NCBI RefSeq assembly: GCF_030013205.1 | Contig: NZ_CP122648.1 | Reading direction: 5' to 3' (one strand) | From: Escherichia coli | GTDB lineage: Bacteria > Pseudomonadota > Gammaproteobacteria > Enterobacterales > Enterobacteriaceae | DNA length: 64,000 nucleotides | Shown: positions 51,001 through 57,000 of the stretch, in pieces | How positions within the stretch are numbered: position 1 is the stretch's first letter | How the letters are laid out: every line of letters begins with the position of its first letter | Made by a program: the position numbers

Positions 51001-54000
51001 GCCATCATCGCCAACTTCGGAATAACTTAACCAGATGCGGCGAGACTGAGCAAAATCAGGCGCTAAAACCACATCCAGCAGGCCACCCTGCCCGTGCGCC
51101 CAAACTTCCGGCACTCCGGAAAGCGGCGCAGATAATCCTTTTCCTGCTTGCCAGTGACGCAACTCGCCGCCGCGCAGAGTGATTAACATACCGTGATTGT
51201 CGGGTAAAAAGGCCAGCGCCCAGGGATGGTCGAGTTTGTCCTGCAGTACTTCGACATTTACCGTTGCAGGAGCCGCCCAGAGAGCGGAAGAAAGACAAAT
51301 AAGGGGCACAAGGAAAAAGGATTGTCGATGCATAACGCCTCCGGATTGACTCTGGCTTAAAGCGTAGTCAGTGGAGGAGATAACAAATTTATTTTTACAA
51401 AAACTTAAACATGAAGGGGGAGACGCTTTCTCCCCCTTAGTTTTCAGGCCTTCTCAAGCATGGCGTGCTTCTGCAGGCTCTGGATACTCAGCGTTAAGCT
51501 CATCAGACAATTTTCAAGCTTATCGGCGTTGACGGTAATAACAGTCGGGCAATCATGGTGCCCACTCATCAAACATACTGCGGCTGTCGCTAATGCTTCT
51601 TCAGCATGATGAAGAGCACTCCACTCTTCCTGATCCAGATGAAGATTCAACCGCAGCGATTTATCGTGCAGTTCGCGATTCAGTTTAAAAAAGTTATCTC
51701 GTAGATGATTGCTTTCGCTGACGGACATGTATCCTTTTGCCTTCCTCAGTTGCACGTATGCGGCGAGGTCAACGCGTGCGTCGATCAACCGGTTCAGCAG
51801 ATCGATTCGCTGTCTGTCAACGAACATACTTCGATCCTCCTCTTTCCAGCCTTATTGCAATTAAATAGTATGGCTATTTTTTGAGCAAAATGCTGTCCAG
51901 GATCAATTCTTCACGCCGAATTAACAAAATTTACATTTCCTTCGCCTCCGCCAGCGAATGAGATTGCGATACAAATTTTATCCAGAACTCTGTAGAATCC
52001 CTGCCCTGACCTTTCCTGTAACTGAATATTTTTTAAGCTATGAGCAAAGTAACTCCCCAGCCGAAAATCGGCTTTGTTTCCCTTGGCTGTCCGAAAAACC
52101 TTGTCGATTCAGAGCGTATTCTCACCGAACTACGCACTGAAGGTTATGACGTGGTACCGAGCTATGACGATGCGGACATGGTGATCGTCAACACCTGCGG
52201 CTTTATTGACAGCGCGGTACAAGAATCACTGGAAGCCATTGGTGAAGCGTTGAATGAAAACGGCAAGGTAATTGTGACCGGTTGTCTGGGGGCAAAAGAA
52301 GATCAGATCCGCGAAGTCCACCCGAAAGTGCTGGAAATCACCGGGCCTCATAGCTATGAGCAGGTTCTGGAGCACGTTCATCACTACGTGCCAAAACCGA
52401 AACACAACCCATTCCTGAGCCTGGTGCCAGAACAAGGCGTGAAACTGACGCCGCGTCATTATGCCTATCTGAAAATTTCTGAAGGCTGTAATCACCGCTG
52501 CACCTTCTGCATTATTCCGTCTATGCGCGGCGACCTGGTGAGCCGTCCGATTGGCGAAGTGTTAAGTGAAGCGAAACGTCTGGTTGATGCGGGCGTTAAA
52601 GAGATTCTGGTGATCTCGCAGGATACTTCCGCCTATGGCGTCGATGTTAAACATCGTACTGGCTTCCACAACGGCGAGCCGGTAAAAACCAGCATGGTCA
52701 GCCTGTGCGAACAGTTATCGAAACTGGGGATCTGGACACGTCTGCACTACGTTTACCCTTATCCGCATGTGGACGACGTCATCCCACTGATGGCAGAAGG
52801 CAAAATCCTGCCGTATCTGGACATTCCGTTGCAGCACGCCAGCCCGCGCATTCTCAAACTGATGAAGCGTCCGGGTTCTGTAGATCGCCAACTGGCGCGC
52901 ATCAAACAGTGGCGCGAAATCTGCCCGGAACTGACCCTACGCTCAACCTTTATTGTCGGCTTCCCTGGCGAGACAGAAGAAGATTTCCAGATGCTACTCG
53001 ACTTCCTGAAAGAAGCGCGTCTGGATCGCGTTGGCTGCTTTAAATACAGCCCGGTTGAAGGTGCAGACGCCAATGCCCTGCCTGACCAGGTTCCGGAAGA
53101 AGTGAAAGAAGAACGCTGGAACCGTTTCATGCAGTTGCAGCAGCAGATTTCCGCCGAGCGCCTGCAAGAGAAAGTGGGCCGTGAAATTCTGGTGATTATC
53201 GACGAAGTGGACGAAGAAGGTGCGATTGGTCGCAGCATGGCAGATGCACCGGAAATCGACGGCGCGGTTTATCTCAATGGTGAAACCAACGTTAAGCCGG
53301 GTGATATCCTGCGTGTGAAAGTCGAGCACGCCGATGAGTACGATTTGTGGGGTAGCCGGGTTTAATTAATCTTAAGGCAGATCTAACAAGGATATTGTTC
53401 TTCGATCTGCCTCTGCTACCCTTCCCGATGTCCTACCCTTACGCACAAAATCCCCTGACGCATAAATCGAGAAAAATGAATCGTACTCGAGGCAACTCTC
53501 ACTTTTTCACACCAAATTAAAGTTTTGATCGCAATTACTTGAAATAAGCGTAATGGTTACTATAGTAAACATTACCACAAGGATGGATGTATGGGTGTGT
53601 ATAAGGCAAGACGATTCAGCCAAAGCACGAAAAAACTTGGTATTCACGATAAAGTTCTCATGGCTGCCGCTGAAGAAGTGATGCAGGGCATATGGGAGGC
53701 TGATTTAGGTAGCGGTGTCATCAAAAAACGTTTACCCCTCCAACAAGGAAAGAGTGGTGGAGCCAGAACAATTATCTTTTTTAAATCAGCAAATCATGTG
53801 TTTTTTTATGATGGTTGGTCCAAGAGTGGTCTAAGCAGTAAAGGAACCAAAGAAATCGAAGATGATGAACTGGCGGCCTACAAAAAAATGGCAAATGCAT
53901 TTCTGGCCTTTAGCACTAAGCAAATAGAGGATTTGATCGAAACTGGCTTTTTGATTGAGGTGAAAAATGAGCGATAAATTACAAATGATGCTGGAAGATG

Positions 54001-57000
54001 CAAAGGAACTGAATGCACTGGGCCTGATGTCTGATAGTGAAGTTGATGCCATTGCCGTCATGGTCAAAGCTCGTGAAGTCAGCGCCCGTATAGCCAAAGT
54101 CAAATCAATGACGGGTGAAGAGATCAAAGCCATCCGCACCCGATACGGCATGTCACAATCCGTGCTGGCACATACAATGGGAATGTCAAAAGAAAGTGTC
54201 TCGAAATGGGAACGTAATGAAATAAAACCGAGCGGCCCGGCATTACGTATTTTGAATACATTGGCAATAAAAGGGCCGGAAGTTTTTGCAAAGTAAAATG
54301 TTTGCAAATGATTTACCACATTCATTAGTACCCCTTGATTAAGGGGTACTAACACTATTCTAATTCTACTGCCAGCTAATCTGCGCCCTGCCGTTTTTCT
54401 TACTCTTATACAGTCGCTCATCCGCCAGCATTTTCAAGCGTTCGACGGTAGTACATTCATTTGAATGCGCTACACCGATACTGGTGCTTAAATTAATGCT
54501 TCCCACCTGGAAATGAACAATTTCTTTTAGAATCGATAGCAACTCTTCCAGCGTTCCACCCGTATAAATCACCGCAAATTCGTCACCGCCGAAGCGGTAG
54601 ACTTTACCTTTATCTACGGGGATCTGTGATTTAAGGATTTTCACCACTTTCATCAACACTTCATCGCCCAGCAAATGACCGAAGGTGTCGTTGATGTTTT
54701 TGAATTTATCGACGTCAAACAGGCACAAATAACCGCCTTTTTCCGGCAGCGCTTTTAAATCTTCGTCAAAGGATTTTCTGCCCATTGCTTTGGTCAGGTC
54801 ATCCAGGAACGCCGAGTTATACAGACTGTAGAGTTTTTTGACATCGGCAGCCGAAAAGAAAAGCCCGCCATCCAGTACGCGTTCAAAATGGTTATTAATG
54901 ATGGCTTCTTTCTCCACAATACCACGATTAATCACTCTGCGTACCAGATAGAGGCAACTGACACCCGAAATCACTGCCACCAATGCGGCAAAGAAAATAA
55001 TCAATGTACAGACCCGCAAATAAACATCTTTTTTATACGCAAATACGTACAATCCGGTCGGCAAATAGGCGAAGTGCTCCATCGCTTCCGAAACGGTGAA
55101 GATGGCGTTTTTAGCATTAAATTCATCACCGGTCACCGGTTTACCGTTCTTAAACAGAGAGAACATCAGGTTCTCGCTATCCATCGCCAGCGATTTTGAC
55201 AGTAAAGAAAAACGCTCCAGACCAAGCAAAAATATCAGACTACGATTATGAGTTACCGGATAGAGGTAATAGACGAAGGTTTTACCGTCAAAAGAGATAA
55301 ACCCTGTATTTTTGACATGTCGATACTTCACAATCTGCATAATATCTGCACAATAATTTTTCTCGAACTCCTTTACCTGAATACATTCGTCACTGGAAAT
55401 CAGATAAGGACCGACATCGTACAAATAAGAGGGTGAAACCGAGTCGGCGTAAGCTGTGCGCAAACCAACCAACAGCTGTTCCTCCGTGGGGTTTAGCGTG
55501 TTGATGAGATCAATTGCCACGCTACGCCGATATTCAGCAATATTTGCCACCGCAAAAGCAGTATCAATAACGGACTGTTTCAGGCCATACACCCGTTCCT
55601 TTACCATTTGAGTGTAGATCCCGCAGGCAACTGCTGAAATCATGATAAAAATCAGCAGACTGACTGTAAGTACGAACTTATTGATTCTGGACATACGTAA
55701 ACTACTCTTTTACTAATTTTCCACTTTTATCCCAGGCGGAGAATGGCATGGGTTTCTGGTACAGATACCCCTGAGCCTGAACACATCCTAATTTGATTAA
55801 TTCGCGCGCAACGTCTTCGCTCTCTACGCCTTCCGCAATCACCGGGATCCGGTTATAGCGTGCCAGATCGAAAATAATGCGCACAATTTTTCCCGCAGTA
55901 CCGAAAATATCGCCGGTAAATTGTGAGTCCACTTTTATGCTATCTGGATTAATTTCATAAAAACGTTTCAGGTTTGACAAACCGGTGCCAAAGTCATCAA
56001 TCGATATCTGTACCCCTTGTTTACGCAGTTGTTCAATATTGAGATAAAAATGTTCATTAATTCGCTCGATCACGGTTTCAGTGATCTCAACACAGAGGCT
56101 GTTCTCCTTCAGGCCATTTTCTTTCATGATGGTGGTAAAACGCTCATGAAAGTGTGGTTCGTTTAACTGCCAGGGCGAAACATTAATATGCAGTAAGAAA
56201 TCATCCTTCAGCGACGCACGCTGACTAAAATGTCTGAATTCACCCATTGCCGTTTTAATAATCTGATAACCCAGCTCATTGATAAACCCGATATCTTCAG
56301 CAATGGTAATGAACTTTAGCGGTGAAATGATCCCCCGCTCCGCAGACACCCAACGGCACAACGCCTCCGCGCCCAGAATGGCGCGGGTGTTAATATCAAC
56401 GATCGGTTGATAGACGAGGAATAGTTCGCCAATTTCCATTGCATGGCGAATATTACGCGCAATCCAGATATTCTCTTCTATTTCGTTGAGTTTCGCGTCA
56501 TCACAGAAAATAAACTCTGAGAACATATGGTCACGGATACTGGAAATCGCCAGTTTCAGTTTTTCTGCGTAACTCCAGGCGTTTTCTCCCTGCAAAGGTT
56601 CACAAATGGCAGACTTATGGATGCGCAGATTGCGGTAGCCAAAGCTGCTGTCAAAATCGTTTATCATCGCTATTTTACGGGTAAATGTCTGTACATTTTC
56701 CCGGCACAGAAGTAAATAGAGATCGGCATTGAATGTCACGATATCGCAGCATTGCGCATATTTCTCGGCAATTCGCTGACACAATTTCCTGACGATTTTA
56801 TTGCGTTCATCAACACCAAACACCGCTTCCACGGCTTCCAGACCACACAGTTTGATGATCCCCACAGCCAGATACTGATTATTGTTGGACTCAATAATCG
56901 CCATATTTTTAATAAAACCGCTTTCCTGATCGTAAGAGATCAGTGAGAGCAATTTATTTGACCGTTCAATTTCGGCATCTTTCATTTCCGCGATCGAATT

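Follow-up and report, generated by a model that had tools for sequence, protein, structure and literature searches.

The closest described relatives of the gene pair considered here are HigB2 and HigA2 of Vibrio cholerae, a toxin and its antitoxin represented in the Protein Data Bank (PDB) by the entries 5JA8, 5JAA, and 8A0X. HigB2 belongs to PF06296, a family listed as HigB2/RelE/StbE in a 2025 survey, in which the toxin gene stands before the antitoxin gene and the toxin acts by ribosome-dependent mRNA degradation (PMC11980606). The Pfam label of PF06296 is "RelE", and the family is that of HigB-2. The V. cholerae toxin folds like RelE, and its loop between strands beta2 and beta3 is Gly-rich, basic, and disordered; it is crippled by mutation of the four residues Arg51, Arg64, Tyr82, and Lys84 (PMC5416850). 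Its partner HigA2 combines an N-terminal neutralising segment with a helix-turn-helix (HTH) domain at its C-terminal end for dimerisation and DNA binding, and one inverted repeat that begins beyond the -35 element and spans the -10 box serves as the HigA2 operator (PMC11006873). Here, we describe a gene pair of Escherichia coli that lies between rimO and dgcI in a stretch of 64,000 nucleotides (hereafter the window) of contig NZ_CP122648.1, assembly GCF_030013205.1. The pair very probably constitutes a type II toxin-antitoxin (TA) operon of the HigBA2 type, in which the toxin would be a ribosome-dependent mRNase, the N-terminal part of the antitoxin would neutralise it, and an HTH dimer would repress transcription at a palindrome over the -10 box. 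The functional steps in this reading, i.e., toxicity, neutralisation, mRNA cleavage, repression, and physiological role, are inferred from family membership and from the anatomy of the locus.

The genes in this part of the window follow the order yliI, bssR, rimO, two small plus-strand open reading frames (ORFs), dgcI, pdeI, and gsiDCBA. The first small ORF (53591-53977, + strand) encodes the toxin of 128 amino acids (aa) and the second (53967-54296, + strand) the antitoxin of 109 aa; both start with ATG, and they overlap by 11 nt (ATGAGCGATAA). The left neighbor of the pair is rimO (52040-53365, + strand) and the right neighbor is dgcI (54366-55694, - strand). In E. coli K-12 MG1655, which is without both small genes, rimO and dgcI are convergent and adjacent, and the spacer between them measures 46 bp and holds one strong hairpin, compared to a spacer of 1000 bp here. 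A blastn alignment of the window with K-12 breaks at 53370 and restarts at 54367; the variable segment (53371..54366), bounded almost exactly by the stop codons of rimO and dgcI, amounts to 996 bp where K-12 has 42 bp, and the window is thus 954 bp longer at this site. The original prediction, made from the sequence of the window, had proposed a two-gene TA-like module at this site, and the ORFs, their sizes, and the 11-nt overlap are all as it described them. It had put the insert at about 0.9 kb. The presence of both genes in K-12-like genomes, one of the findings that it had named beforehand as refuting it, does not apply, because K-12 lacks them.

The identity of the toxin is carried by its match to PF06296, in which residues 1-124 align to model positions 1-120 of 120 (E 1.1e-32, 113 bits). 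The same family was assigned to all toxin homologs for which precomputed domains were available (69/69). The HigB2/RelE-like core that had been predicted for the first protein is supported, and the family match extends over the full length of the toxin; the supposedly extra C-terminus of about 30 aa is a misreading, since this segment lies inside the PF06296 model and is present in 27 of 27 aligned homologs. A single-sequence phmmer search of the toxin against the PDB gave no match, and a profile built from 28 homologs retrieved chains of V. cholerae HigB-2 only (E 3e-4). The PHROGs scan returned for the toxin only a weak match of unknown function. In the structure predicted with AlphaFold2 (AF2; pLDDT 86, pTM 0.82), the toxin has a four-stranded sheet, N-terminal helices, two C-terminal helices, and a short strand. 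The sole stretch of low confidence in this model is the Gly-rich loop QQGKSGGA, which corresponds to the beta2-beta3 loop that is disordered in V. cholerae HigB2 (PMC5416850). All of the first five Foldseek matches of the model are chains of HigB2 from V. cholerae (TM 0.46-0.59, E 1e-4 to 2e-3), the best of them 5ja8 (E 1e-4, probability 1.0, TM 0.51/0.58), and YafQ, HigB1, RelE, and ParE rank after them. By profile alignment, R51, R64, Y82, and K84 of HigB2 fall on R47, R59, W76, and K78 of the toxin. R47, R59, and K78 as well as the loop GKSGGAR are invariant in the family alignment, and Trp76 is, as far as the alignment indicates, the only notable departure from the V. cholerae HigB2 catalytic set.

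The antitoxin carries an XRE-type HTH domain (Pfam HTH_3) at residues 53-94 (E 3e-9). Its phmmer matches in the PDB are the P22 C2 repressor and V. cholerae HigA-2 (5jaa, E 6e-4). A fused toxin-linker-antitoxin model, which was built on 23 paired sequences and reached an overall pTM of 0.67, was used for structural comparison; its toxin half is matched best by V. cholerae HigB2 and its antitoxin half by the C-terminal domain of V. cholerae HigA2. The HTH domain superimposes on this HigA2 domain (5j9i) with a Foldseek TM of 0.82-0.84 and a root-mean-square deviation of 1.1-1.2 A at 27-28% identity. The same model predicts helices at residues 2-17 and 23-41 of the antitoxin (pLDDT 92-96); the N-terminal helix has a conserved hydrophobic face, and A12, L15, and G19 are nearly invariant. 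The predicted N-terminal helices and these conserved residues fit a toxin-binding segment like that of HigA2. The C-terminal XRE-type HTH had been likened to both HigA2 and MqsA. The HTH itself and the likeness to HigA2 hold, and the likeness to MqsA is confined to the HTH, where the match to TIGR03830 (47.1 bits, HTH part only) stays below the curated cut-off of 61.8; the match to PF15731 is likewise a weak one at the level of the HTH (E 5e-4). The scan of the antitoxin against PADLOC-DB 2.0 gave generic HTH matches only.

With the V. cholerae system the E. coli pair shares the Pfam family and the toxin-first order, the RelE-type fold, here predicted, with its Gly-rich loop and conserved catalytic Arg, Arg, and Lys, the two-part antitoxin with a here predicted neutralising segment, and a palindromic, here putative, operator over the -10 box. 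The two systems differ in the length of the toxin, which has 110 aa in V. cholerae and 128 aa here including the two predicted C-terminal helices and the short strand, in the operator sequence, which is TGTACGC-N5-GCGTACA in V. cholerae and twice GTAAnnnTTAC here, and in genomic setting, as the V. cholerae module resides in a superintegron and the E. coli module at a fixed position of the core genome. Among the TA systems known from E. coli and related bacteria, RelBE of E. coli K-12 (toxin PF05016) shares the superfamily fold and presumably also the mechanism, an mRNA cleavage at the A site that depends on the ribosome, but it differs in its antitoxin-first order, its ribbon-helix-helix antitoxin, and its Pfam family, and it gave no match at the sequence level. 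The E. coli MqsR/MqsA system is toxin-first as well and its antitoxin has a C-terminal XRE-type HTH, to which the antitoxin described here shows weak HTH-level matches. However, MqsA binds its toxin through an N-terminal zinc-binding CxxC domain, and the present antitoxin has no cysteine, so that a zinc domain of the MqsA type cannot form. Membership of the MqsR/MqsA family was rejected for this lack of cysteine, for the TIGR03830 score below cut-off, and for the lack of an MqsR Pfam match in the toxin. HigB/HigA of Rts1 (Proteus vulgaris) resembles the pair in its toxin-first order and its RelE-superfamily mRNase toxin, but it belongs to PF05015 and PF09907, neither of which is matched here, and it has a toxin that lacks the C-terminal helix and an antitoxin that is fully folded (PMC5416850).

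The DNA upstream of the toxin gene is consistent with autoregulation. A consensus scan detected a sigma-70-like promoter (TTGAAA, 16 nt, TATAGT; 53539..53566, + strand; 10/12 matches) 25 nt 5' of the toxin ATG, and its -10 hexamer is unchanged across five orthologous loci. Centered on the -10 box is a 26-bp palindrome, GTAATGGTTAC-TATA-GTAAACATTAC (53550..53575), an inverted repeat with 13-nt arms that are 92% complementary, which comprises two GTAAnnnTTAC sites. Its core TTACTATAGTAA is invariant in E. coli, Enterobacteriaceae UBA5654, two Kluyvera species, and Siccibacter, in which the surrounding DNA has diverged; in the alignments with UBA5654, the two Kluyvera species, and Siccibacter, the palindrome and the -10 box are the sole conserved upstream DNA. 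Variants of the palindrome also precede the toxin at some 20 loci of Pantoea, Providencia, Proteus, Photorhabdus, Xenorhabdus, and Enterobacter. Since the palindrome is conserved in many Enterobacterales relatives, it is likely an autoregulatory operator, and the in-silico support for autoregulation by the antitoxin at this site is good. A search for further operator-like sites near the promoters of neighboring genes in the window found none. The half-site pattern GTAANNNTTAC has a third exact match in the window inside gsiB (61182-61192, + strand), which is probably due to chance (three matches are reached in 3/100 shuffles). For translation, a Shine-Dalgarno-like AAGGA (53579..53583, + strand) was read 7 nt 5' of the toxin ATG and a ribosome-binding site GAGGTG (53957-53962, + strand) ahead of the antitoxin start.

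Two hairpins delimit the module. The left hairpin (53375..53412, + strand) follows directly 3' of the rimO stop codon, folds as RNA with a dG of -16.2 kcal/mol (z -2.96), and is probably the end of the rimO transcript. The right hairpin (54325..54352), which lies in the interval separating the stop codons of the antitoxin gene and dgcI, has a 12-13-bp stem that is 100% complementary and z scores of -3.5 (+ strand) and -4.9 (- strand), and it is probably a two-way transcript end for the convergent genes. The flanking hairpins that had been reported from the sequence are both real; their coordinates, then given as 53378-53430 and 54329-54352, are corrected here. The Rfam scan found no RNA family in or near the variable segment, and a search of the spacers to the left (225 bp) and right (70 bp) of the gene pair for gene remnants or ends of mobile elements showed that within them the promoter/operator alone is conserved elsewhere.

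Taken as a HigBA2-type operon, and by analogy with that of V. cholerae, the locus would work as follows. A single promoter would drive both genes, and the 11-nt overlap between the end of the toxin gene and the start of the antitoxin gene would lead to their joint translation. The toxin is predicted to be an mRNA endonuclease with a RelE fold that depends on the ribosome; in its free form it would bring translation to a halt, and the N-terminal helical segment of the antitoxin would bind and neutralise it. A dimer of the C-terminal HTH, with or without bound toxin, would bind the 26-bp palindrome and thereby repress the operon, and loss of the labile antitoxin would set the toxin free. All in-silico tests that were run support the assignment of a HigB2/RelE-like toxin gene followed by a gene for a HigA2-like HTH antitoxin, and several points nevertheless weigh against the reading as a whole. 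Toxin identity to V. cholerae HigB2 is only 11-16% with a moderate structural match (TM 0.5-0.6), and the scans with NCBIfam and PADLOC models left the toxin without a match. Trp76 stands where V. cholerae HigB2 has its catalytic Tyr82, and catalysis may for this reason be different or weaker; truncated toxin alleles occur in some genomes. The promoter is a match to the consensus only. Neither hairpin is followed by a T-run, and their role as terminators is for this reason only deduced. Lastly, no experimental study of the pair turned up in literature searches that covered its WP_ accessions, its ECs and Z locus tags, and E. coli HigB2.

The pairing of the two genes is conserved. In 36 distinct pairs from related loci of many genera, the toxin gene is followed by an HTH gene, mostly with an overlap of 1-65 nt, in agreement with the toxin-first, HigBA-type arrangement that had been predicted. 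The ratio of nonsynonymous to synonymous divergence (dN/dS) of the toxin is about 0.08-0.10 whether it is compared with O157 or with UBA5654. The antitoxin has a value of 0.07 relative to UBA5654 and zero nonsynonymous changes relative to O157. Both genes are under purifying selection, with dN/dS of about 0.1 or below.

Among 5426 complete E. coli genomes, 1138 (about one in five, 21%) carry the module, 1128 of them at full length, and 4285 have the spacer of the K-12 type, which gives the survey of presence and absence for which the original prediction had called. Together the two states account for 5423 of the 5426 genomes, and the locus is therefore a two-state polymorphism. Carriers include O157:H7, O55:H7, O7:K1 CE10, enteroaggregative E. 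coli (EAEC) 042, avian pathogenic E. coli (APEC) O78, and porcine enterotoxigenic E. coli (ETEC)/O139, and no difference separates the window from porcine strains such as K_EC180. The genes are annotated in O157:H7 Sakai as ECs_5400 ("addiction module toxin RelE") and ECs_5399, and in RefSeq as "type II toxin-antitoxin system RelE/ParE family toxin" and "helix-turn-helix domain-containing protein". The pair is not new in kind, as its family, its architecture, and its annotation were established before. One deviating genome, that of E. coli BS-01 (NZ_CP172816.1), has a spacer shortened to about 870 bp, which holds a toxin variant of 122 aa and lacks an antitoxin annotation; its pdeI contains an internal stop, and the shortened TA copy may be either real decay or an assembly error. 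A copy of the TA pair and the dgcI end that is 99-100% identical to E. coli was also encountered in a 1.2-kb contig (JAIJJM010000872.1, 1-1198) of a metagenome-assembled genome of Collinsella, which is almost certainly a mis-binned E. coli contig.

How the module came to this site can be read in different ways. The original prediction described it as inserted, and a recent horizontal transfer into E. coli from a plasmid or phage could explain why K-12 and 79% of the genomes are without it, why its GC content (0.40-0.43) is below that of rimO, and why a toxin search in representative genomes of other Escherichia species and Salmonella gave no match. Relatives whose nucleotide identity is about 70% across portions of the query are found on plasmids of Providencia, Moellerella, and Xenorhabdus, and a toxin homolog with 37% identity is encoded by the Escherichia phage PhiR12_3 (E. 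coli ECOR13; PV340552.1 4340-4657, annotated hypothetical). However, the plasmid copies are far more distant than the closest relatives outside E. coli, which are chromosomal, show 68-74% amino-acid identity, and lie in the same gsiD neighborhood. The order is bssR-TA-gsiDCBA in Kluyvera sichuanensis and PTS genes-TA-gsiDCBA in K. georgiana, while in UBA5654 yliI, rimO, and one extra ORF precede TA-gsiDCBA. Between the window and O157 Sakai, identity is 98.7% for the segment and 98.6% for the 18.6 kb around it, and the module has therefore diverged in step with core genes between these distant E. coli lineages. At synonymous sites, the TA genes have diverged from UBA5654 by 0.68-0.70 and the neighboring genes by 0.58-0.71; the corresponding comparison with Kluyvera is saturated (pS 0.77-0.92) and therefore cannot alone decide between a vertical and a horizontal history. 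Neither a target duplication nor a terminal repeat nor a recombinase was detected at the segment, where the two hairpins and the operator are the only repeats, and the GC content of the neighboring dgcI-pdeI block is just as low. With equally diverged flanks, syntenic orthologs by gsiD, and no marks of a mobile element, the description as inserted does not hold in the sense of a recent event, and we consider a recent acquisition improbable. The simplest reading is that the module is an old resident that was inherited vertically and has been lost or replaced in most E. coli lineages; alternatively, the module may have been gained several times at a hotspot.

Two further proposals concern what the pair does rather than how it arrived. 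The module could act in anti-phage abortive infection, in which a phage would deplete or inactivate the antitoxin and the freed mRNase would halt translation before phage release. Some TA modules of the RelE/ParE superfamily have been discussed as defense systems (PMC11980606), a presence in 21% of the genomes is typical of accessory defense genes, and conjugative plasmids as well as one E. coli phage carry relatives; on the other side, PADLOC-DB 2.0 yields zero families for the toxin and a generic HTH for the antitoxin, other defense genes are missing from the immediate neighborhood, and the long-term synteny with a vertical pattern is unlike a typical defense island, which makes this role rather unlikely. 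The pair might also be a domesticated or attenuated module, in which the toxin would have lost efficient catalysis through the change from Tyr to Trp and both genes would be kept mainly for the HTH transcription regulator. The replacement of Tyr82 by Trp76, the long retention at one chromosomal position, and the tolerance of truncated toxin alleles in some strains are compatible with such a fate. Position 76 is Trp in at least 90% of close homologs and Phe in distant ones. However, the aromatic residue varies (W, F, Y) in a family with active toxins, and RelE-superfamily active sites vary in general (PMC5416850). The invariant R47, R59, K78, and GKSGGAR loop, together with the low dN/dS of the toxin, argue for a maintained toxin function, and no additional operator-like site is found by neighboring promoters in the window, where the only other match lies inside gsiB. 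Attenuation is a still more doubtful proposal than phage defense, and a HigBA2-type operon with a presumably active toxin remains the preferred reading.

A more far-reaching version of this reading would see in the pair an unusually old, positionally fixed TA module with a Trp-variant RelE-type active site, which purifying selection has maintained next to gsiD in several genera of enterobacteria and which most E. coli have lost; we give this combination only a slim chance. If true, it would imply a host-level function rather than selfish addiction, e.g., a translation arrest triggered by stress or phage, or a regulation by the HTH protein that is tied to the neighboring genes for c-di-GMP or glutathione import. 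The fixed site and the syntenic orthologs in other genera offer a clean case to study the retention of TA modules by selection versus their decay, and the change from Tyr to Trp in the active site relative to V. cholerae HigB2 poses a small biochemical question. As it stands, the module adds a RelE-superfamily toxin that is absent from K-12 to the TA complement of pathogenic lineages such as O157:H7 and EAEC 042. Its significance beyond annotation is little, but it could serve as a natural presence/absence marker.

Some observations concern the surroundings of the module. The dgcI-pdeI block (54366-58130) has a GC content of 0.34-0.46, compared to about 0.50-0.55 for rimO and gsiD, and it is missing in Kluyvera and UBA5654, in which the TA pair directly adjoins gsiD. 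The low GC content and the absence from these genomes suggest that dgcI-pdeI is a later arrival in the Escherichia lineage. The extra ORF of UBA5654 between rimO and the TA pair (4738-5688, + strand) encodes 316 aa of unknown function, and the region 3' of rimO therefore varies between genera. On the strand opposite to the TA genes, an ORF of 196 aa (53831-54421, - strand) was rejected as a gene: it is a mirror image of the two TA genes, it extends into dgcI, and the conservation that it seems to show in tblastn follows the TA genes. The locus tags of Sakai have a gap at this antisense ORF (ECs_0914), perhaps an earlier call that was withdrawn. The pdeI ORF (55702-58128, - strand) yields 808 aa from its TTG start, and the K-12 annotation has 2349 bp, i.e., 782 aa; the first ATG at 58050 is likely the real start, because it matches the 782 aa of K-12. 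Further upstream in the window, the small RNA RybB is located at 30240-30318 (+ strand), with a full-length Rfam match of 104 bits.

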